A stretch of 64,000 bases of DNA, taken from Geosiphon pyriformis uo1. Its lineage: Eukaryota; Fungi; Glomeromycota. Position 1 is the first letter of the stretch, and every line of letters begins with the position of its first letter. The notes beneath the pieces were generated by a model. The model made no database searches. It had not been told where the DNA came from and saw only the letters and a list, made by a program, of their open reading frames with translations. The translations under genes and the position numbers were made by a program. Below are positions 8,474-60,589 of the stretch, one piece after another. The stretch is taken from the NCBI GenBank assembly GCA_016748015.1, contig JAAOMT010000479.1, positions 461,824-525,823 of the forward strand, written 5' to 3'.

Positions 8474-9453
8474 TGTTACCAGACAAAATTAGAGACATTA
8501 TTTAGCATGAAATTATCTTTATAATTCCCATCATTAATTAACATATATTATCATTTCAAATTATCACTTATTACATTAGCAAAATGTCCAAAATTATTAT
8601 TTAATTAATAACTCAATTTATATAAACACAAATGTAACCTAATTGTGATGATCAATTATGCAATACTCCAAACTATGTAACATTCAAAAAGTTTACCAAA
8701 ATTTGTAGAAATTCGCCGAAATAATTGATAGTTCACCAAAATATCTAATAGTTTGCAGAAATAACTTGTAGTCACCAAAATGTATCTTTAGTTCAGCGAA
8801 ATTGTAGAAAATAGCAAAGTTCAAGTTCATAAAATAGTGTTACGACAAGTTGTATAAAAGAAAAGCATCTCTCTTTGAGAAAATGTATCTTACTTTAGAT
8901 TTATCTCTTAAAACCATTCCTATATACACAAAAAGAAATAAATATCAAATAATTTGAAAAACCAAATTCTTTAATTATTGTACTTGGAAAATTCTCAAAA
9001 ACCCAACTAACATTTTGAAATTGATTAGCTACTAATTTCAGTAAACTGTTAGTGACTCCAGGCCTGGATAGAAAACGTTTCCCTTGACAGAATTCTATTT
9101 CTTTTACATTTTCTTTTATTTTTCTTTTCTTTTCTTAGTATAGTCATTAGGGTAGTCTACAGACGAGATTCCTGTAGAAGAGTTGACTTTCACAGCAAAG
9201 TAACTACACATATTTTGTGAGCTTCCAGATGAGCAATTCCTGGGAAAAAGTTAACGTTTACTACAATGTAACTACATAAAGTAACTGGCATGGAATTGGC
9301 CATTTCACTTATAAGCCCAGCAATTCAAATTATAGGAGATAATTTGAAGATAAATTCAGTTACTGGAAGATCAACCACATCCAAAAAACGTGAATTCACA
9401 ACAAACAGGCATCAACAACATTTAAGAAAAGAGACCAAAAACCTCTGGTAACA
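8474..9453 (+). repeat. Gypsy-1 5' LTR
   Basis: Direct repeat of 17368-18346 with 7-bp terminal inverted repeats and TATAAAAG at 8853-8860. Confidence 0.97.
8691..8860 (+). promoter_or_regulatory. U3 array of six TTC-N3-GAA-type units at 20-bp period, followed by a TATA box
   Basis: Units start at 8691, 8711, 8731, 8751, 8771 and 8791 (17585-17697 in the 3' LTR). TATAAAAG at 8853. Confidence 0.6.
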
Positions 9454-9455
9454 TT

Positions 9456-9467
9456 TGGTGCTCTCCC
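9456..9467 (+). promoter_or_regulatory. Primer binding site (TGGTGCTCTCCC); tRNA not assigned
   Basis: TGG begins 2 nt after the 5' LTR and is complementary to a tRNA ending ...GAGAGCACCA. Confidence 0.8.
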
Positions 9468-12049
9468 ATAGAAACAACACAGCAAAAACAAATTCAAAGT
9501 GGTGACTATACCAGATACAACAACTCTAGAGTATTACCAGTCAATTTACACCCACTGCAAGCAAAGATTCAACATTCCAGACGGAATTGAAGTTGTCAAG
9601 AAATCAATATACCAATACATTAAAAACCACATCAACAATTATCTTTTTGGAAATTACAATATCTCAGAAGTTAGAAGCAATCTTTACAATAATTTAGCAC
9701 ACTATTCACAGTTGGGAACTGAAGATCTTAACAGTGAAACACTTGCCACTTACTTTCAAGAACTTAATTTTAACATTATCAAGTACTGTGAAGAAACATA
9801 TCCAGTGCAGTCTTAATACTCTATTGATTTTGAATCGAAAACAGAAACAAGCAACAAAGGCAAACACAAATTGAAACAATACTCAAAAACCACCCCAAAT
9901 ACTCCAATACTACCAAAAACAACTGCCAAACACTTACAAACACCTGAACAAGGAACCAGTTCAAAACTCTCACTCACTATTACACCTTTTCCAGCTTCAC
10001 TTGCACAAACACAAACACCTAATTCACTCTTGAATCGATTTGCAAGACCAGAAGATTTTACATCACTCAGAAGTCCCACCAGACAGCAAGAACCCCTTCA
10101 AACTAGTTCCAATTTTCTTGATTTTCTAGCTGAAAATCAAAGTGAACACTTTGAGACAGCAGTAAACGAAAAAAATGACTCTGAAATAACTGAAGAAGAA
10201 TCAATAGACAGTGAAAATAAAGAAGATGAAATGACAGCATACATCACAAAAATTCCTGAATTTAATGGAGAAGACATTGAGACCAGTCCCCAAGAATGGC
10301 TCGACCAAGTTACTAAAGCTGGAGATGCAAATGGATGGAATGCTGCCAGAATGTTAAAAACAATTCCCTACTTTCTCAAAGGAACAGCAGGAGAATGGTT
10401 TGAAAACTTGGCCACTCCATTCAATGATTGGGATGCTTTCAAAGCAGCTTTTCTTGAACAGTTCACTGACAATAATACCTCCATCACTCTTCGAAATTGG
10501 TTTTGCAATATCAAACAAGAATCCTCTGAATCTGTTATGACTTATATTGGAAAATTCAACAAACTTCTCAGACAAATTCGCCAATAATTATTATTCTGAT
10601 GCCCAAATCTTGGATCAATTTATCACTGGTTTAAAAGATAAACTGATTAAAAAGGTTTGCCCACATGTCCCAGAAGATTTAAACTCTGCCATTTAGCATG
10701 CAAAGAGATATGAAATAGCCATAAAAGAAGCCAATCATACAAAACTCGTGAACTTAGCCATTGGAAAGACCAGCTCAGCGGCTGAAGAGAAAATTGACCA
10801 ACTCACAAAGAAAGTCAAAAACTATTTCACCAACCAACAACAACAGCAACCCCAAAGATATTAACCACCCCAAAGACAAAATTAAAATAACTTTGTACCA
10901 CTTTCTAATAACCAGCCTCAGAATTGCCATTATTGTGGAATCTCTGGCCACTGAAAAAAAGATTACAGAAAGCTACAACAAGACCAACAAAATAAGAGTA
11001 ATCAACATTACCCTCCACCACAGCAATCTTATTATCAACCACCACCAGCTTACTATCCACCAAGACCCCAATACCAAAGTAACTATTATCAGCCCACCCC
11101 ACAGCCAATCCAACAACACTACCAACAACCACCCACACAACATTATCAAGTACCTGCTCAAAGACTGATTACACAAAATCAATTCACACCACAAAACTGA
11201 TACCAAGTAAACAATAATAGAATCAGTTCAAACAACCAATTGGTTCCCCGAAATTCCACTCAACCAAAACCCAACCACTATTACACTCAACCCAGTTATT
11301 TAACAATGCCAGAAGAACAAAATTTTCATCATACTGTACCCTTGGAAGATAGAGCTACAGCACAACAACAAAATTTTTCTTATAACCACATCACTATTCC
11401 ACCAGCCAGAATTGCTGAAAACACTAATCTTTCTGATATATTCCCTTTTAAATTTGAAGCAAATGAATTATCATTCTTGCTTAGCAGTGTAGCGGCTAAT
11501 GATCAAAAAGCCATTACTGCAATATATATAGAAGTTGAAACAGAAGGAAAGCCAATTCACTTAATTCTAGATAGTGGATCCACTGGAAGCATTATTACCT
11601 ACCAGTTGATGCAACAGTTAAAGAGAAATGTTGACTGACCAGCTCAGACAGTAATCATTACTGCTAATGGCATGAAAAAGACTCCAGTAGGAAAAATTGA
11701 CAATTTTCCATTCACTCTTGATGGAATTACCATTCCAGTCAAAGTTCTTGTAATAGATGCTCTCCAGTATCAAGCCCTTGTTGGAAACTATTGGCTCCAA
11801 AAAGCCAATGCAAAATTAGACTGGGAAACCCAAGAACTACAAATCTCTTACCAAGAACAACATGTCCGAATATCTGCCACTTGTGGTACATTCAACAAAT
11901 GCTCCGAAAAAGCCCCAGCTTTTGAATTCAAACCAGAAGAAGAAAAACCAATAATTGAAACATTTATGGCTCTTGGATCAACGTCCAATTGGGCCAATAA
12001 AACTGAACAAAAACATTTTACCCCACACTCTGAACCCAAAACTCCTGGA

Positions 12050-12730
12050 TGAAATATCCCTTACTCAAAGCCTAAACCAAAGAAACAACATTCCTATATT
12101 TCTCTTAAATGTAAGGACTACAACAAGAAACTCTCATCAATGGGAGCCTGCATTTCACTTGAAGAAGAATATGAAAATCATACTTGTTACTATTGCAAGG
12201 CTTGTCACAAAGAACAATAGGGCTATTTAATAAAAAGAAGTGGAAAATGGGACAACACCCCTTGTTTGACTTGTGGAGATATGCTACCAGAAGAATGCAA
12301 TTGGATTGATGTAGCAATGAGAGGAGGAGTCTGTAATCAAATCTGCCAAAATGCTTTATCAATTTCAGAAAAAGTCAAAAGATGAACACCCTTTAATGCA
12401 GCATACAACAGTGCTCTCAACAAACTGTACTATTATCCTTATGATGCCGAAATAATTTTCAATCTAGCAATGGCTTTAATCAATAAAGCCATTCAAGAAA
12501 ATGTTTGTCAAATGAAAGAATCAGAATACATTGCATACACCTTTGAAATCGCTGGATACAACTACGAAGATGAAGTATAAGTATATCACCAAATTGCCAG
12601 TCACACTTATCCGACCAAAGAAGCTCAAGCTCAATGGCTAGAGCAAATGAACATTAAATTGTGTGAAGAATACATAATGCTCTGCAATGAGCAATGGTGC
12701 CCTAAATGCTATGCTCTTAGTATTCCCCTG
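12050..12730 (+). other. Cys-rich putative Zn-binding domain between protease and dUTPase (decayed)
   Basis: In-frame translation: CKDYNKK..ACIS..CYYCKAC..KWDNTPCLTCG..EC..GVCNQIC......LCEEYIMLCNEQWCPKC. Homologs are present in Gypsy-2 and Gypsy-3. Confidence 0.7.
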
Positions 12731-12849
12731 CCCAGTGAAAATGATGAAAACAAAATTGAATTTGAAGAACCTGAAGCAACAGAAGAAATTGAAACAACAC
12801 CTATCTATCTTATCAAAAGTCAGTCTGTCTTACAACTCAAATACTTTAA

Positions 12850-13266
12850 CAACAATGGACAAGGAATAAAACCCGAAAAAGCACATGAAATTGATGCTGG
12901 ATATAATCTAAGATATCCAGACAAGGATACTTTTGTTCTCAAATCCAAATCTCTCACAAAAATCAACCTCAAAATTGCACTCAAAATCTCGCCAGGAGCA
13001 ATAGTTTAAATCGCCTTTCAGTCCTCTCTGGCAAGCAAAGGAATCAATGTCAGAGGAGGAATAATCAATGCTGGATATACTGGAGACATTACAGTGATGC
13101 TTCAAAATGAAATTAACAAACCATTCAAGATTGACCATGCTGAAAAAATTGCCCAAGCTATTTACCTATCCCTAATCAACATTTTGAGTTTGCAACTAGT
13201 CAATCAAAGAGAACAATTAAGAAAAAGTGATAGAAGAACCCAAGGTTTTGGTTCAACTGGACGATT
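12850..13266 (+). pseudogene. dUTPase domain within pol
   Basis: All five trimeric dUTPase motifs in order: DAGYNL, SSLA, GIINAGYTG, KIAQAI, RRTQGFGSTG. The D>N changes are explicable by G>A. Confidence 0.93.
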
Positions 13267-15154
13267 CACAATTCCAGTTAATATAGCTCTTAACACACAG
13301 AACAAATCCCACCAGATTCTCAGACTTCCACAACCAATTACCATCTCACTCTTTGGAAAACATCCAGAAATCTACATCTGTCCAAAGCCAACAACCACAT
13401 AACAAATTTTTGAGTTCAATGAACAAGTTTGCTTGGAACATAATATTTCGATCCCAAACATTTATATTTCAGAAGGAACAAAAAAAGTCCGAGTTACTTT
13501 TTACAATCCCAACAATTACCCCATAGTTCTATTAAATAACTTAGAAATTGGAGTCATTCACAGTAACATCTTTTAACAAGAACTACTCCAGACAGTTTCC
13601 AATTTTTCAGAAATTATTGGACATTCACTACCAAAAATCAACCCAAACCCTAGTTCTGAAAACTACTATGTTGTCATGGAAAAACTATCTCGAATCAACA
13701 TGGGACAACTTGAACCACAACAATAGAGCCAGCTCAAAGAACTAATTGTAGAATTTGCCGATATCTTTGCTGAAAACAACAATGACTTAGGAAGAACCAA
13801 TTTGGTCCAACACCAAATTTATACAGGAGATGCCAAACCAAGAAGACAAAAAGCATATCAAGTTGCTCCAGAAAGCCACCAATTCATCCAAGAAGAAGTA
13901 CAACAAATGCTTAACAATGGGCTCATCCAACCCTTCATGAGTCCTTGGGCTTTACTTATAGTGCTAGTTAAAAAAAAAAATGGAAAGATACGATTTTGTG
14001 TTGACTATTGACAACTTAACAGTATTACAATTGGAGATGCCTACCCCTTTCTCTGAATTGATGACATGTTAGATGCCCTTGAAAAATCCAAATACTTTTC
14101 AACACTAGATTTAGAAAGTGGTTACTGGCAAGTTGCTATGGATCCCAAAGATTGCCTCAAAACAGCATTCACCACCCAAGGTAGAAATTATGAGTTCAAT
14201 GTAATGCCTTTCAGATTATGCAATGCACCAGCAACATTTCAGAGATTAATGAATGTTGTGTACCAAAGACTCCTTTGGAAGTCAGTAGTCGTTTATCTTG
14301 ATGATACTGATGTTTATTCTCCATCGTTCAAATTACATTTAAAACATCTGCGAGAAGTTTTTCAATGATTACAAAAAGCAGGACTAAAACTCAACATCGA
14401 AAAATGCTACTTTGGAAAAACAAGCTTGGCCTTCCTTGGTCATATTGTTAGTAAAGATGGAATCAAACCAGACCTTAAAAAAATCAGCGCTGTTAAAAAC
14501 TTCAAAACTTCTCAAAACACTACAGAACTAAGAGGATTCATAGGGTTAGCCTCTTACTATTGGAAGTTTATCAAGAGATTCTCAAAAATCACAAAACCTC
14601 TCAACCAGCTTACCACCAAAAACGTTAAATACAAATGGACTGCTGAATGCCAAAATGCATTTGAAATCCTCAAAGAAAAACTAATGACAGCTCCAATTCT
14701 CACCTATCCAGATTTCAGCAACCGATTCCAATTAGCAACAGATGCCTCTTATACTGCCTTTGGTGCTATTCTATCACAATTGGATGACAATAAAAATGAG
14801 CAGGTAATTGCTTATGCTAGCAGAACATTAAAACCAGCTGAAAAAAATTATTCTGCCACTGAATTGAAAACAGCAGCTGTAATTTGGGCCCTACATTATT
14901 TCAACCTTTATTTTCGGCCAAAAGAATTTGATATTATCACTGATAATATTGGACTCAAATAGCTTCAGAACAAAAATACTTAGCTGAATGCAAAACAAAC
15001 TCAATGGACAGGATTTCTAGCAAACTATTAATACATAGTACATCACAAACCAGGAAAACTCTACACCAATGTTGACTGTCTCTCCAGAATAAGACAAGAT
15101 TAGAAAACACAAAAACCAATACTTAACTTAACCAACCAAAACAGCCAACAAACA

Positions 15155-16540
15155 ATGAATTCGGAAAACTACAACAATCTTAAACAATATTTGGAAACAT
15201 TAACAATCCCAACAGATTGGTCGCCAGATGAAAAACATCAACTACAACAACAAGCCAAACAATATTTTTTACACAACAACATTATTTATCATCAAAATTT
15301 CAAAAACCCAGACAAACCACTCAGATTAATACAAGAACAAGAAAAAGAGACTATATTATACAACATGCACTCAGATCTTTCATCAGCACACTTTGGAAAA
15401 AACAGTACCACCCAAAGAACACTAGAATACTACTTTTGGCCTTGAATGAGAAAAGACATTTACGAATATGTCAAATCTTGTGATAGTTGTCAAAGAAAAG
15501 GAGGAACACGCCCTACTGAACCATTAAATCCAATTAAAGTTGGACAGCCTTTTGACCGAGTTGGTATCAATTTAGTCAGACCATTATCTATCACTATTCA
15601 AGGAAACTATTATATTGCAGTAGCTGTAGACTATCTTACTAAATGGCCTAAAGCCAGAGCCATTCAATGAGTAAATGTGAAATTAGTAGCAAATTTCATC
15701 TATGAAAACATCATTTGTAGACATGGATGTTCAATTGAACTTTTATCTGATTAGGGAACACACTTTGTGAACAACCTGATACAAGAAATTTGTGAATGAT
15801 TCAATGTCAAAAAATCTCTGTCTTCACCCTATCATCCACAAACAAATGGGCTTGTAGAATATTTTAACAGAATATTGTGCGAGTCATTAGCCAAAGTCTC
15901 AACCAATTTTGAGCAAGAGTGGGATATCTTTATTCCATCAGTGTTACTAGTATACAGAACACTAAAACAAGATACCACAAAACACACACCATTTGATTTA
16001 ACTTATGAAAGGACAGTAATATTACCAATTAGTTTCATAGTAGAAACATACCCAGCACAACCAATCAATGAAAACAATTTTCAGGAAATGCTTCAACGAA
16101 GAGCCTACATGCTTCTCAGCATATTGGAAAGAAAATGACAAATAGCGGCCACCCATATTAAACACTCCCAAACTCAACAAAAAAAACAGCATGACAACAA
16201 ATTGCCTCCAGTTACCAATGATTTTAAAGTTGGAAACAAAGTTCTCCTACACAAAACTAAAGCTGAAAAACAATGGAGTGGAAAATTTGAAAATAAATGG
16301 GATGAACCATTCTTTATCCATGAAATACTAGGCAATGAATCATACAAGTTAAGACTTAATAACAAAATCCTAGCAAAAGTTGCACATGGAGATTGTTTAA
16401 AACACTATCATTTCAGAAACAATTCTGAACCATTAATTCCATAAATTGGTACACATTCACCTTTAGTCAATCCCGAAGATATTCCCCGAAACATAGAACC
16501 AATAGTTGTTATTGAACAACCTTCCAACTTGAACACTTAA
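15155..16540 (+). pseudogene. Gypsy-1 integrase (HHCC, DDE, GPY/F-like module, EPIVVIE tail), apparently its own ORF
   Basis: MHSDLSSAHFG..YFWP..CDSCQR; PFDRVGINL; VDYLTKWP; SD.GTHF; YHPQTNGLVE; GKFENKWDEPF. ATG at 15155 follows TAG at 15101; natural-looking stop at 16538-16540. No chromodomain seen. Confidence 0.9.
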
Positions 16541-16679
16541 TTTAATTTTACTAGTTATTCCCTTATAATTTAAAAATAATTTCACAAAAACAAAACAAAA
16601 CACACTGAAAGACAAAATAACATAAAAACCCACATACCAAAAATAATTTCAATCTATCTTTCTCACTCAAATTTTTATA

Positions 16680-17399
16680 ATGACTATCCCTTAAAATATT
16701 CAACAAATATCTTAAAAATTAATGCTAGCTCTAAAGACAATACCCGAATTATCTATTACTGTTACTGGAAACCATATTAATTATACCCAAACAGAAGTAG
16801 TTACAAATTTAGTCCCAAATTCACGAAAATATTACCCACATAAGAAGAACACAAGAAGTTATTCTGGAATTCACCTACCAGAACTTTTGAAGCTTGCTTT
16901 AAGAGAAAACTTATTGCTCATCCCTATTAGTATTCTACCAAATGCTACTATTCAACAAAAACTTCAACTGTGCCTTAATAAAGAAAACAGCAAATACCCC
17001 CCAATATATAGATATTTCTACATTAGAAAAACACTTTACGAACAAAAACTGGAGCTTACAGCAGCAAACCTCACAAAAAAAGCTATCCAAAAACAACTCT
17101 ACAATAAATTTAAGACAACAGCTGGACCTACAAACAGTCATTATAAATTAAGAGCAGCTCTTAGACTTTACGACTTATTCCACATCTGTGAAAACGTCCT
17201 ACAAAACCCAATTTTACAACCTTTGAAGATTCAATACATTGGAAAGCTCACAAAACTGAAATTTCAACAATTTTCAGACCAAATTTCTTCAATAATTTTG
17301 GATTATTATCTGGAAATTACAAACAGTACTTGGACTTCGATGGAGCTCAGTCTTAAGGAGGAAGTTATGTTACCAGACAAAATTAGAGACATTATTTAG
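16680..17399 (+). CDS. Gypsy-1 ORF3, unknown basic helical protein (not Env-like), overlapping the PPT and 3' LTR
   Basis: 225 open codons at 16722..17399. An upstream in-frame ATG at 16680 is separated by two probable CAA>TAA stops. No signal peptide or TM segment. Decayed homologs occupy the same position in Gypsy-2 and Gypsy-3. Confidence 0.65.
17355..17364 (+). promoter_or_regulatory. Polypurine tract of Gypsy-1
   Basis: AAGGAGGAAG ending 3 nt before the 3' LTR, preceded by GGAGCTCA. A similar context is seen in Gypsy-2. Confidence 0.85.
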
Positions 17400-18346
17400 C
17401 ATAAAATTATCTTTATAATTCCCATCATTAATTAACATATATTATCGTTTCAAATTATTACTTATTATATTAGCAAAATATCTGAAATTATTATTTAATT
17501 AATAACCCAATTTGTATAAACACAAATGTAACCTAATTGCAATGATTAATCATGCAATACCCCGAACTATGTAACATTCAAAAAGTTTGCCGAAATTTGT
17601 AGAAATTCGCCGAAATAATTGATAGTTCACTGAAATATCTAATAGTTCGTAGAAATAACTTGTAGTTCGCCAAAATGTATCCTTAGTTCAGCGAAATTGT
17701 AGAAAATAGCAAAGTTCAAGTTCATAGAATAGTGTTACAACAAGTTGTATAAAAGAAAAGCTTCTCTCTTCGAGAAAATATATCTTACTTCAGATTTAAC
17801 AATTAGAATTATTCTTTATACACAAAAGACAAAATAAATATCAAATAAATTCGAAAAACCAAATTTTTAATTACTTTCCTTGAAATTAACCAATTCCTAC
17901 TAACAGTTTGAAATTGACTAGCTACCAATTTTAGTAAACTGTTAGTGACTCCAGGCCTGGATAGAAAACATTTCCCTTGACAGAATTCTATTTCTTTTAC
18001 ATTTTCTTTTATTTTTCTTTTATTTTCTTAGTACAGTCATTAGGGTAGTCTACAGACAAGATTCCTGTAGAAGAGTTGACTTTCACAGCAAAGTAACTAC
18101 ACATATTTTGTGAGCTTCCAGATGAGCAATTCCTGGGAAAGAGTTGACGTTTACTACAATGTAACTACATAAAGTAACTGGCATAGAATTGGCCATTCCA
18201 CTTATAAGCCCAGCAGTTCAAATTATAGAAAATAATTTGAAGATAAATTCAGTTACTGGAGGTTCAACCACATCCAGAAAACGTGAATTCACAACAAACA
18301 GGCATCAACAACATTTAAGAAAAGAGACCAAAAACCTTCGGTAACA
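17368..18346 (+). repeat. Gypsy-1 3' LTR
   Basis: Direct repeat of 8474-9453. Confidence 0.97.
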
Positions 18347-18350
18347 CTGG

Positions 18351-31600: not shown

Positions 31601-31677
31601 ATAATAAATTAATAAATGATCCAAAAACACTTGATGACAGAGAAGGAACGCGATCAAATTTCCAAGTTTTCCACTTC

Positions 31678-38505: not shown

Positions 38506-41500
38506 TTTTTTTTTATTCATTTAACAAGTAAGATTCAAACACTGTTTAGTATAATACATCAAAGAATTAATCTAAACTAAATGTAAATCATGTATTTTCT
38601 ACACATGACCAGTTACTCAAGCTGATTAGAACAACATTAAGCATCTATGTAAACAGAAACAGGACTCTCAATACCCAAAAAAAATAAATAAGATCTATAA
38701 AAACCAAAACCAACACCAAATGCCTTATCAATTCCCAGCAATTTAACCACACCAGTAGAAAACATTGAAGACAGCCCAAAAACCAAACTCAGAACTGACT
38801 CATTACATGGTATTAGCTTATTTTTTTTCATAAAAACACAATGTTTAGCATAAACTAACCAAATCTTTTTCTTAAAGCAAGACAGAAATCACACACAAAG
38901 TCTACAACTTTTTTATCCATGACTTTAAAACCTTTGAAAACAGAAACAGTCTTCTGAATTCAATCTTTAAAAACAAAACTCTTGCAAAAAATTGTATATA
39001 CTGTAGCATTTAAAACACAGAAGGACAGTAATTATAACATGCATAAAGATAAAAGGAAAAGACCAGAAAATGCACACCAAACAGCTGTATAGACATCCAA
39101 TAATTAATGATAAACAGAATTATCAACCATGCAAAAAAAAACATGATCAAAAATCTTAATATTGCTACAATACAAACATAATACACTAGAGTAATACTTA
39201 TCATATAGGTATTTCTAAACAGCAACTAGTAATTGACAATGCAAAGCTTTTATAAAATATGTGCAAATACCAGCAGTAATTTTACTAGTAAAACCAGCAG
39301 CCATATGTAACTCGGAATGTTACACCAAGGATGAGTTAAGCCAATCAACATCTAAGAATAAACTATCATCCAACATTCCAGATCCAGAACCAACTTCTTA
39401 GCATATACAATAAATAAACTAAAAGATTCTACAAACAAAATGTCTAAAATTACCATACATGACACTATCTTTAGCCAAGACACAATGTTCTTTCAAATCA
39501 GAAAAAAGACATTAGGAAGAAAAAAAAGCATCATTAGCAAGTACATTAGCATGTTCATTACCAAAAATATCCAAGTGATCTTTAATTTTGCACCAGCTAA
39601 CATTTAAATTCTTTTTTCTAATAATGTTTATGATGTGCTAATGCTCAACTCAACACTAATTCTGAAAATTTAGATACACTAGACCCAGTTCCGATTTGCA
39701 GATATTTAGAGCAGCCTAACTATTCGTAAAAAAACAAACTGAGCTAAGAGAAAAGACACATTCAAAAACCAACACAATAGTCTGTAGCTCTGTCAAAATA
39801 GAAAACAACAAACCAAAAACCCTAATCTCTAAACTCAAGTTCACATCCCCAAAAAAAACTGCTGCATTAGCTCTTATATTAGCACTTTCTAAGTCCTTTA
39901 GAGATCTGTTTATATAGACAGAAAGACTGTTAGCCATAACATCCAACAAATAACCACAAACATGTTTGAACTTATTAAACTTCAAAACACTTGAAAGTCT
40001 AAAACCACCCAAAAAAGAAAAGCCAACAGGAAAAAAAACTACACCACTAAGAAAATCAATAAAAATCTTAAACCAGTCAGGAAAAAAACCATGTGGATTT
40101 AATTTTTTTTAATACTTGAAAGTTTTTTAATCAAAGATAGCACTTTTTCAATTATGAAACTGTTTTATAAAAGCAATACCATATTACTGAAATAAAGGGA
40201 GAAACCTAAAGAAATCAGACTTACCAAGCACAGTTAACATAGAAGTTCTATTCCAAATATGAAAAGAATTGACTATTGGACTACTTAAGAACAAATTGTA
40301 CCCAATATTACTGGAGGTTTTTGGTCTCTTTTCTTAAATGTTGTTAATGTTGATTTGTTGTGAATTTACATTTCCAGGAAGTAGTTGGACCTCCAGTAAC
40401 TGAATTTATCTTCAAATTATCTCTTATAATTTGAACTTGCTGGGCTTATGAGTGGAATGGCCAATTCTGTACCAGTTGCTTTATGTAGTTATGTTGTAGT
40501 AAATGTCAACTCTTTCCCAGGAATTGTTCGTCTGGAAGCTTACTAAAAATGTGTAGTTACTTTGCTGTGAAAGTCAATTCTTCTACAGGAATTTTGTCTG
40601 TAGGCTATCCTAATGATTGTAATAAGAAAATAAAAATAAAAATAAAAGAAATGTAAAAGAAATAGAATTCTGTCAAGAGAAACGTTTTCTATCCAGGCCT
40701 AGAGTCACTAACAGTTTACTGAAATTGGTAGCTAATCAATTTCAAAACGTTAGTTGGGTTTTTGAGGATTTTCCAAGTACAATAATTAAAGAATTTGGTT
40801 TTTCAAATTATTTGATATTTATTTCTTTTTGTGTGTATAGAAATGGTTTTAAGAGATAAATCTAAAGTAAGATACATTTTCTCAAAGAGAGATGCTCTTC
40901 TTTTATACAACTTGTCATAACACTATTCTATAAACTTGAACTTTGTTATTTTCTACAATTTTGCTGAACTAAAGATACATTTCGGCAAACTACAAGTTAT
41001 TTCTGCGAACTATTAGATATTTTGGTAAACTATCAATTATTTCAGCAAATTTCTACAAATTTTGGTGAACTTTTGAATGTTATATAGTTCGGGGTATTGC
41101 ATAATTTGATCATTGCAATTAGGTTACATTTGTGTTGTGTACAAATTGGGTTATTTAATTAAATGATAATTTTGAACATTTTGCTAATGTAATAAGTAAT
41201 AATTTGAAACAATAATATGCTAATTAATAATAGAATTTATAAGATAATTTTATGCTAAATAATATCTTTAATTTCATCTGGTAACACCAAGAAAAATATA
41301 AACCATGCCAGCTAAAAAATTATTAGATAAACTGAGTCTAATACAAACCAGAAAATTCAAAGAATAAAGTAAACATCAATTTAGAGTCTGCAAGTCAAGA
41401 AACCTGTATAAAAACAAACAACCCAAAATTTTAATAGAGTTCGTGAAACACACAACAAAAGCCACTTTGTTTTCAGCTTAAACCTGCTTAAAAGTTTTCA

Positions 41501-47726: not shown

Positions 47727-48103
47727 CTTTTTTTTTTTCATGTTTAAAATTCTCTAAAGAATTTACTTTTGAAAAAAAGTTTTTTTGTTATTATCTTATT
47801 ATTTTTTTTATCATTTTTCAACTTAATAATCCATTTTTTGTGAACTTGAAAGCTGTTTTCAGTAATAGTATGTTAAAAAAAAAGACACTTAAAGAGATTT
47901 TTTTTGGTTCTGTTAAAGAATCTTTTTCTCAAAAAAAGAAGATTGTTCTTAGTAATATTAAGTATTTTAGTGATGAAAAAATGTAGTTTTGATCAGATCT
48001 GGTTCTGATAGTTTATATTTAGATGCTAATAATAAATTTAGTAGTAATAGAAACAATAACATAATAAAAAATATTAGCAGTAGATTTATTTTGAGTTTGG
48101 TGG
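47727..48103 (+). mobile_element. LINE-5: 5' stub (5' UTR plus start of ORF1) of the LINE-2 subfamily, cut by Gypsy-2
   Basis: Aligns with 4464-4850 (AATAATCCATTTTT..AAAAAGAAGATTGTTCTT..TGATGAAAAA). Confidence 0.8.
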
Positions 48104-49058
48104 TATTATAAGTAATTATTTGGGGTATGAAAACAAATAACAAATCTGTAACTTGGTGCTCAATAGCTGGATAGTATTAGTAATATCTAAAAATTTTCAT
48201 ATTTAAAAGTTTTGATTGAGTCTTTTGTATAATAGACAGAGATTCAATAATAATATTCTTTGGTGATGTTTCAACTTTTCTTTTCCAACTTTCAAGTTGG
48301 TATGCTTTAATGTTTATTGCTTTCCAGAATATTTATATTCTGTTAATTTTTTTCTCAGCTTGGTGGCCAGTATTTTCTAATAAGTTATTCTCAATTTCAA
48401 GTGTTTATCCTTATTTCTGGGTCTTTTATTAGTGCTATTTCCTGATATTAGTACTTTGTGTATTAATCCTTTTAATCAGTTAGTAAATCAACAAACAAAA
48501 ATAAAAAAATAAAAAAAAATAAAAAAATAAAAAATTAGTATTTTGTTAATAGTCATAATCAAGAACTATTGTTTCAGTATAATTAAGTATTAGATGTTAT
48601 TAACATGAAGTGTTGATAAATAGAAGAGTAATTAAATTCTCAAACAAATAACAATAATATGAATTGGATAATAATAAATATGTTTTATTTGATATTTTTG
48701 TTAATAAATTTACTTTGATTGATATTATTATTTATAAAGTAAAGGTTAATCAATAATTAAGAAAAAAAATGCTAACTGAAAATAAACTGACTTTTGAATA
48801 TTTTTTTCATTTCTAATACTATTATTATATATACATAATTAGTGTTATATAAAATTTCTGGAATTCTACAATTTCTTTAAAAAAATCTTGGATTTCTGGA
48901 TTTCAAGAATTCTGTAATTTTTTATAAAGAATTCTGGAATTCTGAGATTCTGGAATCCTGTAATTTCTTTAGAAAAATTCTGAAATTTCTCTATTATTAT
49001 GTTTTTTTCTGATTAATTATTCCTTTAATTATGATATTTTTAATTTCTATAAGTAATA
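48104..49058 (-). repeat. Gypsy-2 3' LTR
   Basis: Decayed TGTTAC/GTAACA termini and an adjacent PPT. The U5/R half is homologous to 55506-56050. U3 has TTCTGGAATTC repeats at ~48855-48990. Confidence 0.8.
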
Positions 49059-52000
49059 TTATTCTCTCCTTTTTAATATTAAGCTTCATTAAAATTTTTT
49101 AAACTTTCTAGATTTTTTTCTTGGATTAATTTCATAACTTCTTTCTTCAGAATTGTTTTTGTAATTTTCATTTGCAATTCATTAAATTAAATATTAATTA
49201 ATTTTTTCAATTAATTAATAATTACAGTATCTATAGTTGAGTGTAATAATATTTTTGGTCTGTCTTAAAATTCTATTTGTAATTAGTAAATGGCTTTTGC
49301 ATATGTAAATAAATTGTTCTTTTTAATAAGTTGTTCAATTTATTGTAGTTGAATTGGATTAATTTTTTTTGTTTTATCAGTATATAAGTTTTTAATGCTT
49401 AATTATTGTCTTAACTAATAATAATAAAAGTTCTTTGAATTTTGTTGTATTTATTGGTTCTAATTTTTTAAGATCAATTTTTTTTTGATATTAATATTCT
49501 TGGATCTTTCAATGTCTTTTCTATCTTTCTTATTATTTTATTTACAGTATTTTCAGAAATGTGGTATCTGAAATATTGTTCTTTGGTTTGGTTTTTTCAT
49601 GATATCCTTTTGTTTTTGTACTGTATTATGTGTTTATTGATGATAATTTCTATTGTTGAATCAGTTGTAAAAGTTGTTGTGTAAGTAAGTAAATGTTGTT
49701 AGTAATTTATATTTTTTTTTGTTGGTTTTGTTATGTATGCTGGTTTCTTATATATGATTCTAGTAGATCAATTTGACATGTTTGCTTCAATAATAATAAT
49801 TGGTTCTAAATCTTGTAGAATCTTATCTGGTTCAAGTAGTATTCTTTGTACTTTCAGTTGTAAAATATTATTGATAAATAATAATATTATATTGTAGTAT
49901 AGTTTTAGTCAATCTCTATGTACTGCTTTAGCTAAAATTTTGTTGTTCTATCTTAGTTTATAAGTTTCATTTTCTAGAATTTCTTCAATGTGAAATAGTT
50001 TATCTCATTTGGTGTCAAATTTTTCACTCCATTGTTTTTCTACTTTGGTATAATATAAGAGTATTTTGTCTTCAATTTTGAATTCAATTGGTTTATCTAG
50101 TAATTGGTTATTATGTTATTTTTTTTGTTTTTTTTGTGATCTTTGAATGTTATTAGCTGCTCTTTGTCTTTTGTTTTCCAATGTTTTCATTAATTCATAT
50201 GTTCTTTGGAAGTTGGCTTCTGTTATTGGTTCTATTGGATATGTGTTGATGTTTATCTTAACTGGTAATGTTGCTGTTTTATTATAAACAAATTCAAATA
50301 GTGTTGCTTATATAATATCTTGTTTTATTGTTTAATAAGCAAATAATACTGATAATATAAACAAATTCCATTTGTTCTGGTTTTCTTGGCTGATTTTCAT
50401 TATCATTTTATACAATATTCTGTTAAATCTTTCAATTAAGACATTTGTTTGTAGATGATATAGTGATAATAATGGTCTTTTAATTCCAAATTTTTGACTT
50501 AATTTTGCTAATATTCTGTTTACAAAATAAGTTCCTTAATTTGATAGTAATTTTTTTAGACATTTGTATCTACAAATTAAATCTTTGTAAACAAATTTAG
50601 CTATAGATTTTGCATCTGCTCTTTGAATTGCTTTTGCTTTTGGCTATTTAGTAAGATAGTCCATAGCTATTATTATATAATAATTGCCTCTACTGGTTAT
50701 TTTTAATGATCTAACTAAGTCAATTCTAATTTGATTAAATAGTTGTCTCATTTTAATTGGTCTTAGTGGTTCACTTGGTCTTGTTTCTTTTTTTTTTTGA
50801 CAAACATTACAATTTTGAACATATTAAATGATATCTGAATACATAGATGGCCAATAGTATCTTTTTCTGGTTTTTTCTATAGTTGTTTCTTTATGAAAAT
50901 ATCCTGCTGTTGGATCTGAGTGTATGTTAAATAGTATTATTTTTTTCTCTGGTTCTGTGATAATTTTGAGTGATTGATCTGAATATTTTCTGTTTTTCTG
51001 GTATAATATATCTTGGTAAATAATAAAATATTTTGATTGTTGTTTTATGTTGTTTTGTTCCTTTTGAGATAATTTTTCCTTGAATTGTTGAGTATTAATA
51101 TAATATTGGAGTTGTTGATATTTTTGTGTGTTTATTTTTTGTTATATTTTTGGGTTGAAATATTCTTAGATTTGTTTCATTTATGACAAATCATTGACAA
51201 TTTTATTTTATTTTATTTTTTTATAATATACTGTATAATTGAATGATAATAGTTTTATTTTCTATCTTGCATAGTAATTATTTCCAAATTTCTGCTTTTA
51301 AATTAATGTCAATTCTTTGTAATCAGTGTATACATCAAACTTTTGACTTAAATATTCTTTTTATTTTATAACAGTCTAATAGATAGCCAAATATTCTAAT
51401 GCTGAAGTTCTATAGTTCTTTTCAGCTGAGCTTAAGCTTCTCCTAGTATATACTATTAAGTGTTTTCTTCTATTTGGTTTTTTTTGTAACAATACTGCTC
51501 TCAATACTTGATCTGATGCATTGGTAATGATAATGAATAATTTGCTGTAATCTAAATAAATTAGTACTGAGGCTTGAATAAGCTTTTTTCTCAAGATATC
51601 AAAAGCTTTTTGTTGACTTTCAGTCTATTTGTATTTTACATTTTTGGCTTGGAGCTGATAAAATGGTTGAGCCAATTTGAAAAAATTCTGAATAAAGCAG
51701 CAGTAGTATCTAGCAAATCCCAAAAATGCTCTTAATTCTGTGAGATTTGTTGATACTAGAAAGTTTTTGACAATCTCAATCGTATTTGAATCTGTTTTAA
51801 TACCATCTTTGTTTACAACATATTTCAAAAATTTCAGTTCTGTTTTGCCAAAGAAGTATTTAATTGTGTTTAATTTCAATCCAGCTCTTCTTAATCTCTC
51901 AAACACTTGCTGAAGATAGTGCAAATACTCATCAAATATTTTTGAACATATATTGGTGTCATCCAAATACATAACTACTGATTTCTATAGTAGTTTAGTA

Positions 52001-54050
52001 TAGATGATTTCTATTAGCAATTGAAAGATAACTGGAGTATTTATTAAGCCAAATAACATAACATTGAATTTAAAGTTTTCTTCTCTGGTTGTAAATACTG
52101 TTTTTTCTTTATCAGTTAGATTCATAACTACTTACCAGTAATCACTGTTTAGATCCAATATTAAAAACTATTTCTTTCCTCTAAATGCATTAAATAGTTC
52201 TTGAATCTGTGGAGTTGAATAACTGTTTTCACAAGTAATACTGTTAAGTTTTCTGTAATCTACACAAAAACAGATTTTTCCATTTTTCTTCTAAACTAGT
52301 ACTACTGGTAATAACTATGAACTTATTGATAATTAAATTAACTCATTGTTTAACATCCAGTTGATTTCTTGTTGGATGATTTTATGGCTTGCTAATAGTA
52401 CTTTATATGTTTTTTGTTTAATTAATATTGTATCTCTTGTCTTGATTTAGTATTAGATGATATTTATTCTGCCAAATTCATTTTTACTGGCAAAAATGTT
52501 AGTGAAATTGTTGAGTAGTATTTTAAGTTGTATATGTTGAAGTGGATCTAAATTTCCCAAATTTATTTGGTCTAATTGTTTTGGTTAGAGCAAATAATAT
52601 TCTTCTCATCTGTATATTGTTTGTAATATGATATCTACATATTTACAAAGCTGTAGAAAATTTGAAATAAGGTTTGGTAGTTGGTCCTCAATTTTAGTGC
52701 TTAAGTATCTAATGGTGGTTTTACTTAGTATTTTAATGGTGTCTTTAGTTGTATAAGAATTTTAATGTGTTTATTGTTCTTGGCTAATATGTAAAGATTG
52801 GTAATTCTAATCTTTCCTGATTTATAAATAATTGGTTTTGCTTCAAAAATCTGGGGCTGGTTCCTTATTTTTCTTTCTATCACTAATATGTACTGGTCAT
52901 ATAATAGAATAAAAACTAATTAATAAGTGGAGATAATTTTTTCCTTATTAATTGTTTCTTTTTTTGCCATATTAATTAGTATATTTAATTTATTTGTGGA
53001 TTTAAATCCATTTTTTCTTCTTGTTGTAATTCCTAACTCTTTTTTTTTTCTTATTAAAATTAATTAGGCTATTTTCATCAAAGATAGAAATATTGTCTGT
53101 GTTATCTTTTTATTTAATTCAATTATATATGGTTTTTCTGATTCATTTTATAGTATTGTGATAATATTTTCTATATATCTCACATTAATTATTTCTTCTT
53201 TAATGCTGATTTTTTTTTTGTTAAACTAGATCTGGATGCTAATTGAATTATTGTTGTTGCTAGAATTTCCAATGCTATCTTTAAATTAACACAAGTACAT
53301 ATATTAGATTTCAATATTATAGCATATTTTCTTGGATATCTTAGATCAAATCCTAAATTAGTATTATGCATGCATTCTGGCATAATATCTTTATTATTAT
53401 CACTGAACCATCTTAGTTTCTGTTCTATAGATAGATCTGAAAGTGCAATATATTGTTTAAATTTTAAATCAAAGTTTGAATTGTTATTGCCATAGTGAAT
53501 AAAGTTGAAACTATTGTTGTTATTATTGTTAAAATCTGAATTAAGATTAAATTTTGATTTCAATTTCACTATATATTCACTAATTAGTTTTTTTTCTTCT
53601 GGGATCAAATAGATCATGCATGGTAGTAGATTGTGAATAAATTACAATCATTACAATAATCAAAGTCACTGAGAATTAGGCAATGTTTATACAATCTTGT
53701 ATTTAACTGTTTTAAATACTGTTTTTGCTCTTTTTTAGTGAGTGCTAGGTTCTGGTAGTGTTTATAGAAGTATTCTGAATTATTTAAAATATCAATAAAA
53801 ACATCTAAATTAAAGATAAGAATGGTTTCAACTGGTTTTGATGGGTTATTTTTGATTGCTAATATTTTGTTGAACAAAGTGCCTTCAATTTTAGTACTTA
53901 CTATTCACCAAATTTTGTTTTTATTGTGAGAATAGTGCTCAATTTTACACAGTGTTAAAGAGTGTTTTTTAGTTTACCCAATCACTTATTAGAATTGTGT
54001 ATTAATATAATACATTATATATTCCTTTTTAACCAGAAATCTTCTTCCAT
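48104..54050 (-). mobile_element. Gypsy-2: decayed, 5'-truncated Ty3/Gypsy element related to Gypsy-1
   Basis: 3' LTR 48104-49058; PPT 49062-49074; ORF3 remnant ~49080-49720; IN ~49770-51135; RH 51376..51594; RT YLDDT ~51960; dUTPase GFDLRYP..LASRSSL (53189..53617); Cys-rich domain 53620-54050. Confidence 0.9.
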
Positions 54051-55370: not shown

Positions 55371-55505
55371 CTTCTTTTTAAAATTGAGTTTTTACAAAAT
55401 TATATGTATTTGTAAAAATTGTTCTTTTGATATAATATTTAATTGTTGTGTTAAGTATTGTTTTTTGTAGATTTTTAAACTATGAATTTGTTATTTATTT
55501 TATGT

Positions 55506-56395
55506 TGTTACAAGTGATTATTTGGGGTGTTAATACAAATAACAAATCTATAACTTGGTGCTCAATAGCTGAATTATGTTAGTAATATTAAAAGATTTTG
55601 GTAATCTGAAGGTTTTAGGTTGGAGTTTTTTGTATAATAAACAGAAATTTAATAGTTGTTTTTAATAACCTCCTAGAATAATTATTCTGTCAAATTTTTT
55701 TCTTCAACATGATAGCTGGTTTATTCTGGTAATTATGCTTTTTTGGTAAACTATCTATTAAGTTCTAAATTCTATACTCTTATTTTTGGATCTTTTATCA
55801 GACTATCCTTAATGTCAATTACTTAGTATTTAATCTCTTTAATCAATTAGTAATCAACAAACAACAAAGAAAATAAAAAAAATAAAAAAAGGAAATAAGA
55901 ATTAGTATTCTATCAATAGTTATAATTAAGAGTTATTGTTCTAATGTAATTAAGTATTAGATTCTATTAATATGGAGTGTTGATAAAGTGAAGATAATTA
56001 ATATTCTTTAATCAAGTGATAATAATATGGATTTAAGTAGTAATTAATAATTTATTGATATGTGATATGGATTTTGAACTGCTTTTAACTGTGTTTCTTA
56101 ATTGAGAATTTTAGTTATATGTTTTGTCTTTTCTGTTTTTAACACTTTCACTATATATATATAATTGATGTTCTACAAGATCTCACATATTTATAAACAA
56201 TGTATTATAATTTTTTAAACAATATTCATATTGCTAAGCAATATGCTTTAATCTATTAATATTGCTCATATTGCTAAGCAATGTGCCATAATTTACTAGT
56301 AATATGCTTACATGTTTAATACTACTTTCTTATTGGTCTATTTTTCTTATCTGTTTTTCTTATTATTTCTTTTGTACTCTTTTCTATGAGTAATA
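55506..56395 (-). repeat. Gypsy-3 3' LTR
   Basis: Starts TGTTACAAGTGATTATTTGGGG like 48104. U3 carries ATTGCTAAGCAAT palindromes at ~56230 and ~56270. Confidence 0.75.
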
Positions 56396-59300
56396 ATATT
56401 GTTAATTGTAATAGTTTTTAGTAAATTGTCTAATAATATGACTAAACAACATTTAAATATTAAATACAATTAGTATATTGCTTTGTAATATAATATTAAG
56501 TTGTTTCTTCTAACAAATTTTTTTACTTGTTTCAGAGCTTTTTTATTAAATATTTGTTTGTTGATATTTAAGTATAATGTTTATAAGTTTAATTTTTAAA
56601 AAACCAGTAAATTAATAAAAAGTTTTTTTTCCAAGTTTTAAAAGTTTTTAGTATTTAATCTCTTATGTCTAATTCTATAACTAATTTATTTAAAGCTTTT
56701 TTAATTTTTTCAAACATATAAAACCATGTATTTTTTTTTTTCTCTTTTGATTGTTTATAAAAATAAAAATACTTACTTTTAGTTAAATTCTTATTCAATT
56801 TTTTCTTACTCATATTTTTATATTGTATTTTTTTTCTATCAATTGTAATTTTTATTAGTATTATAGATTGTTAAATTGTTTTAAATAGTTGTTGTAAAAG
56901 TTTCAAGATTTTGTTTAAAAGATTTATATTACAAGTATTATTAATTTTTTTCATATTTTTGGTATTTATATATTTATTTTATGTAATTCAAATTATCATA
57001 CATAGATTGTGTTCAATAATAATAATTGGTTTTAGATTTTATAGTATATTTTCTAATCTAATTAATAGAATTTATGTTTTTAGTTAAAATACAAATAATG
57101 ATAATTTTTGTGTTATATGATAAATTCTTAAACAATTTTTATATGTAGTTTTTTTTAAAATCCTGTCTTTTAATAATAATTTGTAAACTTTATTGTCTAA
57201 AACTTTATATATTTAAAATAATTTGTCTTATTTTAAGTCAAACTTTTCACTTTACTGTTTTTTAGCTTTAATATAATATAATAATACTTGATTTTCAATC
57301 TTAAATTCAATTAATTAATTTAGTAAATAATTATTATGTCTTTTTTTTTGTTGTTTTTAAGTATTATTAATATTGTTAACTGTTATTTTATGATTGTTTT
57401 TTAATGTTTCTATAAAATGATATGTTTTTTGATACAAAGTAACTTTAAAATTTTTTTTGGTAATTGTTTTTGTTAAAAAAAATATATTTTTTATTTAATA
57501 AATAATGTGGTTTTTCTTCTATAAACTAATTTAAACAATATAAACTGAATAGTATTTTGCTTTAATGTTTAATATACAAATAATACTAAAGATATAAATA
57601 AGTCTTATTTTTACATATTTTTGTAACTTATTTTTGCTAATATTTTATATAATATTTGGTTAAATTATTCAAATAATTTATTTATTTAAAAATAATATAG
57701 TAATAATAATAATTATTTTATTATAAATTATTAGTTTAATTTAGTAAATATGCTATTAATAAAATAAGTTTTTTGGTCAAACAATAATTTTTTTGGGTAT
57801 TCATATTAGTAGATTAGATTTTAATATATAAATTTAGCTATTGTTTTGGTATTTGCCACTTGAATAGTTTTAGTTTTAAACTATTTAATAAGATAGTTTA
57901 TAGCTACAGTAATATAGCAATTTTTTTTAGAGATAATTGAGAAAAATTTAACTAAATTAATTTTAATTCTATTAAATAAATTTCTAACTAAAATAGATTA
58001 AAATAGTTTTATTATTTTGGCTTTATCTTTTTTTTGATAGAAGTTACAATTAAAAATATATTCGAAAATATTCTTATATATTGTTGGCCAATAATATAAA
58101 TTAATTATTTTCTCTAAAGTAATATTTTTATTAAAGTATTCTGTTATTAGATTAGAGTATATGCTAAATAAAACAATTTTTTTTATTATCTTTTATAACT
58201 TATTATAATGTAGTGTAATTTTGGCATTTTTAATAATATAATTAGTTATTTTACAAAAAATAGTTTAAGCTTGTTTTTATATAACACTTTGTTTTTATTA
58301 AAACAGTTTCTCTTTAAATTAAAGTGTTAATAGATATTTGTATAATTATTAATAAATGGCTATAACTATTAGTCAAAATTAGATTTGAGTTATTTTTAAT
58401 AACTTATTAGTATTGGTGTTTTTAGCTCTTTTTTATAATGTATTTTGTATGAAAATTGTTACAGATAAGTATTTTATCTTGTATATTTTTTTTTAAGTTG
58501 TGATTTGTTAAATAATCAAATAAGTTTTTTATAATTAATATATAAATTAAATAATTAACAAAAATAATATTTTTAGTTTTATATAGCCTAATAAATAATA
58601 AAAGATTTTAAATCAATAGTATTATATATTTTTTTAACAGTACTAATATTGCAGTTAACATAAATAATTTTATATTTTTAACTATTGAATTTGATTGTAA
58701 TAAAATGGCTTTTAGTGTATTTTTTGATATATCTATAATAATAATAAAATGTTTATTAAAGTTTAAGTAACTTAGAATTGATGTTTTTATAAGTTGTTAT
58801 TTAAAATAATTTAAAGTTTTTTGCTAATTAGCCTTTTATAAATATAGAATATGTTTTAATAATAGATAATAAAAAGATTTGGTAATATTAAAAAAGTTTT
58901 TGACAAATTATTAATAGTATTTAGCCAGTTTTAAAAAAAATTTTAGTTTTTTAGGTTGGTTAAAACAAAAAAATTTTAATTTTTGAATTTTGTTAAGATT
59001 TAATTTTATTTTATTTTTATTAATAATGTGTTTCAGAAATTTTAGCTTGGTTTTTTTAAAAAAACATTTATTAAGATTAGGTTTTAGTTTTAAATTCTTA
59101 AGACAATTAAAAATTTGTTAAAAATAGCACAAATAGATATCAAAAATTTCAGAAAATACATTTATATTATTTAAATATACTACAACTAATTTCCAAAAAA
59201 TTTTCTTGTATATGATATTTATAAGATATTAAAAAGTAGCAGAAATATTACAAAATTCAAAAAACATTATATTAAATTTAAAATTTATATTTTAAGTGGT

Positions 59301-60558
59301 GAATGTCATTTTTTTTTGTCTAAGAAATCTATTTTAATTTGTTAATATTCATTAACTAAATCTAAGAATGAGAACTATTTCTTATTTTTTAAATTATCCA
59401 GAATTTTTTGAATAAAAAAAATTAAGTAATTATCTCTTTAAGTGATATTGTTAAGTTTTTAATAGTTTACACAGAAATTATTTATTTTATTTTTTTTGGT
59501 AACTAATACAACAGATAAAAACCAAAAGCTTAGTAATTTTTTAATTAATTTATTATTTAGCATCTATTATTTTTTTTTTAATTAATTTATTATCAACTAA
59601 AATTATTTAATAGACTTGTTATTTAATAAATCTGGCATTTTTTATGTTAATTTTATGCTTTATAATATTAATATATCTGAATTTGTTTTTACTGGTAAAA
59701 ATATTAACATATTAATTTAAAAGAACTTTGAGTTATATTTGCTATAAAGTATTTAAATTTTCTAAGTTTAATTTATTGATTTTTTTTATTATGAATAAAA
59801 AGCTTTTTTTTAACAAGTTTTATACTTAAAAATAATATTATGTAAAATTAGAAATAAATTAGAGTTTTTTGAGATTTTAAATGTTTAGAAAAATAGAATT
59901 AATAAAAATTTTTTTGAGAATCTTAATAACATCTTTGATTAAATTATAAATAAGAATTTTAAAATATTTGTAAGCTTTGACAAGTATATATAAATTTGCA
60001 ATATTAGCTAAAAAACAGATTTTTAGAACTATTTTAAATAATAAAACTTAATTCTGAATTTTTTAATTAACTTTTAGAATGTATTGTCAATATAATTGAA
60101 TAAAAATAATAGTATTAATATAGATAAATTTTACTTTATCAATAATGTTTTTCACAAAATTAACTTGTATATTTTTTTTTATTTGACTTAAATTCTTGAA
60201 TTTTTTAAGCAATAAAACCTAATTTTTTTTGAAATTAGTTAAAAATTTTTTACAAAAAGTAGAAAGATAGTTTGTACAATTTTTTTTTAGGATTTAATTA
60301 TATAAGACTTATTAAAATTGTTTTAAATTATTATAATTATATTTTTAGTATATCTAATATTAATTATTTTTTTTTAATATTAATTTTTTTGTTTACAAAA
60401 CTAGACCAGAATGCAATTTAAACTATGATATTAATGGAAATTTTTAAAGTTAATTTAAATCTATTTTTATAAAAAAATAGAGTATTATAACTATAAAAAA
60501 ATATTTAAAATACTTTAAATTGAATTTAACATTATTTTTATATGCTTTTTGGAGCATA

Positions 60559-60589
<31 letters not shown>

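Follow-up and report, generated by a model that had tools for sequence, protein, structure and literature searches.

Anatomy of the Gypsy-1 element

The window analysed here, a stretch of 64,000 nucleotides from a contig of the fungus Geosiphon pyriformis, contains at 8474-18346 a decayed Ty3/gypsy retrotransposon, Gypsy-1, in which integrase is encoded in a reading frame of its own. The element is bounded by two long terminal repeats (LTRs), at 8474..9453 and 17368..18346, both with the ends TGTTAC...GTAACA and, like all other features of Gypsy-1, on the plus strand. The LTRs are identical in 908 of 984 alignment columns, the differences being 52 transitions, 15 transversions and 9 gaps, and the flanking 4-bp target duplication contains one mismatch. 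From the sequence, a primer-binding site (PBS) starting with TGG is found at 9456..9470, 2 nt past the 5' LTR, and a polypurine tract (PPT) at 17355..17367. The arrangement TAACA+TGGTG at the LTR end and PBS also occurs in relatives of Gypsy-1. No tRNA genes were found in the window, and an Rfam scan of 8400-18400 gave no match.

Pfam matches and translation give the order N-terminal extension, capsid, CCHC knuckle, protease (PR), Cys-rich region, dUTPase, reverse transcriptase (RT) and RNase H (RH), followed by one frame for integrase (IN) and another for a third protein, ORF3. Together with the LTR analysis, this bears out the module order given in the initial annotation, i.e., LTR and PBS, Pol up to a stop after RH, an ATG-initiated IN ending in a stop, ORF3, PPT and LTR. 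The long Gag extension (9472..10230) has one stop and no in-frame ATG in this copy; relatives likewise have extensions of 200-500 residues. The capsid (PF03732) and the CCHC knuckle, the latter identified by eye, lie at 10231..10966 with a frameshift near 10587, and the last Cys of the knuckle is gone, also judged by eye. The aspartic protease (11531..11860) is a weak match to PF13650 and is interrupted by a stop. It is followed by the Cys-rich region (12101..12720), the dUTPase (PF00692, 12830..13265) and RT with RNase H (PF00078, PF17919 and PF17917, 13760..15100). Between dUTPase and RT, about 140 codons at 13271-13700 have no Pfam match.

The Pol stop codon at 15101..15103 is inherited, as other copies and relatives show. 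It is followed by an A/C-rich, AUG-free and unstructured spacer of 51 nt (15104..15154), in frame and stop-free in the window copy, and then by the stand-alone integrase frame (15155..16540) with its ATG at 15155 and its stop at 16538-16540. The integrase has a zinc finger, a core and an SH3-type end, and matches the gypsy-type domains PF17921 and PF24626. A second AUG-free and unstructured spacer of 139 nt (16541..16679), with indels of 1 nt and 4 nt between copies, leads to ORF3 (16680..17399), a conserved, predicted helical protein (profile iE 1.6e-28) whose frame crosses the PPT and ends within the 3' LTR.

The Gypsy-1 copy is dead. Apart from the gag frameshift and the absence of an in-frame ATG before 10231, the 947 codons that span RT through IN contain 15 stops, two of which are the junction stops; one decay stop, at 15029, lies just upstream of the Pol stop, and ORF3 contains two stops within its first 12 codons. 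The junction stops therefore cannot be judged from the window copy alone; other copies and relatives confirm them.

Direct LTRs with TG...CA ends, PBS, PPT, target duplication, the order capsid-nucleocapsid-PR-RT-RH-IN and gypsy-type RT, RH and IN domains all place Gypsy-1 among the Ty3/gypsy elements (Metaviridae), and its RT-RH is 44-47% identical to fused gypsy Pol proteins. It differs from them in that IN has a reading frame and a start Met to itself and in the conserved, non-envelope ORF3. IN as a part of the Pol polyprotein, which is usual in Ty3/gypsy without defining the family, was not found here. A chromodomain (PF00385) was matched neither on the integrase pieces of the window nor on the 120 stand-alone integrases listed.

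The separation of Pol and integrase

Relatives were collected from soil metagenomes with a DNA search that is blind to reading frame, and the best 80 of 577 confirmed matches were analysed. None of these 80 loci contains an open reading frame holding both RH and IN. In 55 loci both the upstream frame and the IN Met are present, while 12 have no upstream DNA, 12 no IN start and one no Met. After exclusion of L080, whose RH itself is broken, the gap between the Pol stop and the IN ATG could be measured in 54 loci.

The gap ranges from -20 to +365 nt, with 9 overlaps, 8 gaps of 0-30 nt, 29 of 31-100 nt and 8 above 100 nt; the stop and start overlap as ATGA in 4 of the 54. Relative to Pol, the integrases are distributed over the three frames as 15/18/21, with two loci in frame and free of stops, and the 42 loci in which RH is demonstrated in the upstream frame give 12/13/17. 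The Pol stop is mostly TAA and has no common 3' context among the relatives. At the protein level, a search for stand-alone integrases, limited by length, gave 403 matches of 263-839 residues; 117 of the 120 listed have a start Met, mostly at a homologous place as judged by eye. Viral contigs searched for the integrase gave three weak, unrelated matches only.

Other copies of the window family lead to the same picture. When 432 contigs of the run X1 were aligned to 15020-15180, the stop and the ATG were free of alternative letters at a 3% threshold, whereas at three positions near the junction 97-99% of the depth disagrees with the window. Seventeen contigs diverge from the window within the stop codon and then carry another spacer. 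The window may itself derive from X1, and rare variants are lost in its contigs. Two other runs, X2 and X3, contained next to no matching sequence. The X1 copies keep both signals, and in none of the 80 metagenome loci do RH and IN share a frame. Both the Pol stop behind RNase H and the integrase ATG are therefore inherited and not a product of decay, and the departure from the gypsy plan is real and lineage-wide.

Two further features were seen in some relatives. Seven loci (L014:2498-2503, L016:2882-2887, L018, L055, L059, L076 and L078) contain UGA followed by CUA in frame between PR and RT. We take this to be a readthrough-type context, which suggests that Gag-PR may be coupled to RT-RH by readthrough in this subgroup. 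In L026, L038, L053 and L071, mostly hairpin-bearing loci (see below), about 270-340 extra residues without a Pfam match follow RNase H.

Fused forms and evolutionary relationships

A search for longer proteins in which RH and IN are fused gave 669 matches, of which 120 were listed. Among these, the matches with at least 44% identity are five gene models from arbuscular mycorrhizal fungi (AMF) and one metagenome protein. In four of the five AMF models the final part of RH is missing, and in the fifth a linker of 96 residues is present, so these fusions are probably produced by predicted introns that span the stop. The metagenome protein, P0127, known from its protein sequence alone, contains RT, RH, IN and ORF3 in a single chain.

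A tree of RT-RH plus IN was built from 59 rows: 26 split loci (three near-duplicates dropped), two window copies, three AMF models and 28 of the 120 fused matches. It was calculated with LG+G4 and rooted at the midpoint, with a bootstrap that had incompletely settled, and it contains search matches without named reference elements. The split loci, the window copies, the AMF gene models and P0127 form one branch with support 98/99; with RT-RH alone the support of this branch is weaker (SH-aLRT 86). The nearest fused gypsy Pol proteins, P0127 excepted, lie outside the branch, as do Pol proteins bearing PF00385 such as P0133, P0134 and P0166. With this branch, no fusion in 80 loci and a conserved ORF3, the coherent lineage of Pol-stop, ATG-IN-stop and ORF3 that had been proposed from the window alone holds up.

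P0127 is nested with a split locus (100/99) and is therefore likely a re-fusion. Several independent splits, instead of one split followed by the re-fusion of P0127, are a possible alternative. Integrases of the same or a related gypsy type were also seen inside bacterial metagenome-assembled genomes (L085, P0082 and P0228); fungal contamination of these bins is likely.

A hairpin before the integrase start codon

In one subgroup of relatives, a conserved hairpin of 40 nt with invariant loops and covarying stems lies directly before the integrase AUG, for example at L060:1131-1187. The pattern was seen in 21 loci just 5' of the AUG, and a model of the motif gives strong matches in 22 of the 80 loci and one weak match (L022). 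The loci with the hairpin are L025, L026, L027, L029, L033, L034, L036-L040, L042, L043, L051, L053, L054, L057, L060, L068, L073-L075 and L085. In 18 aligned copies, 7 of the 12 base pairs have changed on both sides and 97% of the cells are paired. None of 500 shuffles reached this level of covariation and slid controls drop to 22-52%, in a type of test that sequence relatedness inflates.

Rfam 15 gave no match to the motif in 13 loci at E-values up to 5, and the covarying hairpin would be an RNA element new to Rfam. A scan of a collection of prokaryote genomes gave a single match, on a short contig and before the same kind of integrase. One viral contig (L084) matched the pattern by chance, as it received no score with the model. 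At the window junction the model gave no match.

A set of loci without the hairpin (L004, L005, L007, L008, L010, L017, L019, L020 and L024) shares YGGAY repeats and a T-rich TTGA element in the spacers before the AUG.

The ORF3 protein

An ORF3 profile built from 28 members matches 29 of the 42 loci that have at least 600 nt behind IN, and in proteins it gives 651 clusters at 50% identity. Among the 150 homologues listed, 145 start with Met and 147 have at most 250 residues, with a median pI of 8.7. Of 10 members whose names were looked up, 4 could be named, one of these just as "hypothetical"; the named ones belong to Rhizophagus, Gigaspora and Glomus. In the window, 10 of the 16 variants listed in 17111-17322 fall on third codon positions of the ORF3 frame by our own count, which hints at selection on ORF3. 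Some relatives have no ORF3 at all.

None of the 150 listed homologues contains a membrane-type stretch (a hydrophobic 19-mer above 1.6). ORF3 as an env gene is rejected for lack of a membrane helix, and to call the lineage retrovirus-like, as the initial annotation did, was an overstatement. Pfam gave no match below 0.01 on the 28 members. The ORF3 of one relative is predicted to be all-helical with a pLDDT of 95. A structure search with this model gave a best Z of 5.2 (rmsd 3.5, 69 aligned residues), and nothing in PDB or BFVD at E<=0.001, which does not imply a new fold. By sequence and model, ORF3 is thus a conserved, non-envelope protein, predicted to be all-helical.

It can be speculated that ORF3 is a soluble partner of integrase working on DNA or chromatin, since P0127 carries ORF3 fused to the integrase end; we consider this idea possible and rather doubtful. 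Other types of protein stand in the ORF3 place in some relatives: a NUDIX hydrolase (L030:1945-2889), a helix-turn-helix protein (L020:6546-6944) and a Cys/His-rich protein (L024:2258-2701). Among AMF, one Gigaspora gene model, P0388, contains two ORF3-like domains, and ORF3 may have kin in host gene families that have expanded.

The dUTPase and Cys-rich modules

The initial annotation regarded the accessory modules as marks of the lineage and stated that canonical Ty3/gypsy elements have no insert between PR and RT. Neither is supported. Queries with the dUTPase and the Cys-rich region gave no match in the 80 metagenome loci, many of which are too short to span the region, and all 120 listed homologues of the two modules are G. 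pyriformis proteins, with up to 83% identity. The dUTPase and the Cys-rich domain would then be local acquisitions of the Geosiphon families. A dUTPase between PR and RT is moreover described, in the parts of the papers drawn on here, from fungal and rotifer gypsy elements, namely PosPlaTy3-5, Phanerochaete and Tuber elements and Juno, Vesta and TelKA (PMC2864245, PMC6431247, PMC5408684). As far as these descriptions go, IN lies inside Pol in those elements, in contrast to Gypsy-1, and the comparison is one by description.

In the Cys-rich region, 12 of 13 Cys are kept in 74-100% of the aligned Geosiphon copies, and the region is likely zinc-binding. Its fold predicted from a single sequence (pLDDT 49) is uninformative.

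Possible routes to a separate integrase

LTR retroelements normally bring integrase into the particle as a part of Gag-Pol. If IN is made separately, another route for its packaging and dosage is needed, and the clade would test whether the polyprotein is necessary. Translation of the downstream frames would require reinitiation, internal entry or a subgenomic RNA. Gag-Pol, integrase and the small helical ORF3 are three separate frames, and we suggest that they are translated from one full-length RNA, on which ribosomes would terminate after each frame and begin again at the AUG that follows, giving integrase and then ORF3. The restart could be direct where stop and start overlap, or could follow a short scan over the spacer; in one subgroup, the conserved hairpin just 5' of the integrase AUG might position or hold the ribosome.

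The spacers point in this direction. In 37 spacers of 10-170 nt, 5 AUGs are observed against 27.9 expected from dinucleotide shuffles, while just upstream of the Pol stop the AUG density is normal; the AUG-free stretch therefore starts at the stop. The IN start has a purine at -3 in 47 and a G at +4 in 44 of the 54 loci. With UGA-CUA between PR and RT in seven loci, the lineage would also use recoding at another site. Reinitiation is used by fungal viruses, by SART1 and by LINE-1, the latter with a spacer of 63 nt, according to the part of the review drawn on here (PMC5972666). All in all, we give a probability of roughly 55% to Gypsy-1 being a decayed member of a three-frame fungal lineage that uses termination-reinitiation for IN and ORF3. 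The three-frame layout is the solid part of this; reinitiation and the function of ORF3 are what we infer.

Several observations weigh against it. Of the 54 gaps, 17 lie within -20 to +30 nt and 37, like the 51 nt in the window, are farther apart, exceeding the about 29 nt tolerated in viral cases according to that same part of PMC5972666. The AUG test is weakened, as GTA is depleted in the spacers too (12 against 28) and three long spacers show no AUG depletion (15 against 14). An AUG-free leader fits a subgenomic RNA equally well, and the hairpin, which is missing from the window junction, could instead block scanning. Further, all three copies in the window have an in-frame spacer and the gaps are multiples of three in two of the three gapped X1 contigs listed, so that readthrough is a possibility for the window family. 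Finally, the metagenome loci have no host label, and what ties the lineage to fungal hosts is a small number of named AMF gene models.

Among the alternatives, the one that survives best, unlikely as it is, has shorter RNAs for IN and ORF3 start from promoters inside the element, close to where the upstream frame ends. Spacers of 60-365 nt occur and are AUG-poor when short, several contain common short repeated words, and the start context of IN is strong. However, the 9 overlaps and 8 gaps below 31 nt leave no non-coding room, the normal AUG density continues right to the Pol stop, and the covarying hairpin speaks for a signal at the RNA level in one subgroup. Less probable still is a structured spacer RNA that recruits ribosomes internally, or that cuts the RNA or blocks its decay and so frees an integrase message. 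The strong covariation, the invariant loop letters and the position in 22 of the 80 loci, always 5' of the IN start, would suit such an element, as would the sole match in the prokaryote-genome collection, which also precedes such an integrase. On the other hand, 58 of the 80 loci (the weak match L022 among them) and the window do without it, it has no Rfam family, and single sequences fold no better than shuffles.

Spliced subgenomic RNAs for IN and ORF3, as for env-type ORF3s, are improbable. ORF3s are typically spliced according to the portion of PMC5408684 drawn on here, and several AMF gene models connect RH to IN or IN to ORF3 over the stop; yet just 4 of 18 spacers without hairpin have a YAG in the last 30 nt before the ATG, and the missing RNase H ends are what prediction artefacts would give. 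Readthrough of the Pol stop, yielding a low level of the normal Pol-IN polyprotein, is more improbable again: the three window copies with an in-frame spacer and the UGA-CUA stops elsewhere in the lineage favour it, but 39 of the 54 relatives are out of frame, only two have an in-frame spacer free of stops, most of the Pol stops are TAA without a common 3' context, and the IN Met is conserved. That the junction stops are C-to-T decay in dead copies, as the 13 further stops in the same frame of Gypsy-1 might suggest, is refuted by relatives in which Pol and IN are both long and open and are nevertheless separated at this very point, and by the stop common to the X1 copies.

To return to termination-reinitiation, the lineage offers dozens of natural junction variants, from overlaps over unstructured spacers to a covarying hairpin, for the study of reinitiation after long frames in fungi. 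More tentatively, and with clearly less confidence, one could speculate on an undescribed and widespread AMF clade of LTR retrotransposons in which the Pol polyprotein has been broken up into a polycistronic RNA, with free integrase from serial reinitiation that is steered in one branch by a new class of structured RNA, and a conserved accessory protein with a fold unmatched in PDB acting as integration cofactor or reinitiation activator.

Relation to known elements

SART1, LINE-1, victoriviruses and hypoviruses also have a downstream frame after a stop-start overlap or a short spacer, with RNA structure at the junction, as described in the part of PMC5972666 drawn on here. These elements are unrelated to Gypsy-1, whose lineage differs in that the product is integrase, that two junctions follow in series, that the gaps range widely, and that the mechanism is putative. 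Non-envelope ORF3s are also found in the rotifer elements Juno, Vesta and TelKA, according to the excerpted text of PMC5408684.

Errantiviruses, Athila/Tat and other three-ORF gypsy elements have an extra ORF between IN and the 3' LTR, with IN inside Pol. The position of the extra ORF is the same here, whereas in our ORF3 membrane helices are absent and neither Pfam nor the fold searches gave a clear match. The Ginger/TDD DNA transposons have a gypsy-type integrase as a gene of its own too, according to the part of PMC2836005 drawn on here; in that type the integrase gene stands without RT between inverted repeats, and an assignment of Gypsy-1 to it is rejected, as RT-RH lies upstream of IN and LTRs are present.

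The layout was not found described in the literature searched, which was covered by titles and the beginnings of abstracts; Repbase reports, GyDB, subscription journals and supplements, including those with AMF transposon libraries, may hold it. That the system is undescribed, as first proposed, holds within the reach of that literature. Two AMF transposon papers (PMC11952901; bioRxiv 10.1101/2021.03.30.436303) and PMC3248453 treat gypsy elements at the level of superfamily or clade only, in the portions drawn on here. In the annotations of AMF and in soil metagenomes, the lineage accounts for many genes labelled "hypothetical" and for many stand-alone "integrases".

Gypsy-2, Gypsy-3 and the rest of the window

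Two more elements lie on the minus strand. Gypsy-2 (about 48100..53900) is decayed and 5'-truncated, with the end of the Cys-rich region, dUTPase, RT, RH, IN and an ORF3 remnant; Gypsy-3 (about 55500..63100) contains capsid, CCHC, PR, Cys-rich region, dUTPase, RT, RH, IN and a doubtful ORF3. Both are heavily decayed and neither keeps the IN ATG at the junction. A stop after RH is found at the homologous place, at 51168-51166 in Gypsy-2 and 58381-58379 in Gypsy-3. The claim that they share the module order of Gypsy-1 wherever it can be read thus stands for the modules and the stop but less so for ORF3, where the profile match is weak in Gypsy-2 (iE 0.0012) and insignificant in Gypsy-3 (iE 0.33). 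The Gypsy-3 ORF3 frame resembles that of Gypsy-2 at E 1e-5.

No paired LTRs were found for either element. Between the two, the 3' regions can be matched (71% over 603 nt), but neither matches the LTR of Gypsy-1; they may therefore be one old family rather than two. Of the three divergent families initially annotated, Gypsy-1 stands apart and the number of the others is uncertain.

The window is a graveyard of repeats, in a genome in which LTR elements make up 41.2% according to the part of PMC11952901 drawn on here. Decayed LINE copies with an RRM-like ORF1, endonuclease and RNase H lie at 1-3700, 4444-8468 plus 18348-21175, 22054-28864 and 38480-45700. Gypsy-1 is inserted within one of them, as the LINE halves 6080-8468 and 18348-21175 match a continuous copy at 27264-22054. 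At 40306..41286 on the minus strand, the Gypsy-1 family has left a solo LTR, flanked by a 4-bp target duplication without mismatch; this LTR too landed in a LINE copy. Host genes are found at 31561-34435, encoding a Man1/Src1 C-terminal domain (PF09402) and a protein of the endonuclease/phosphatase family (PF22669).

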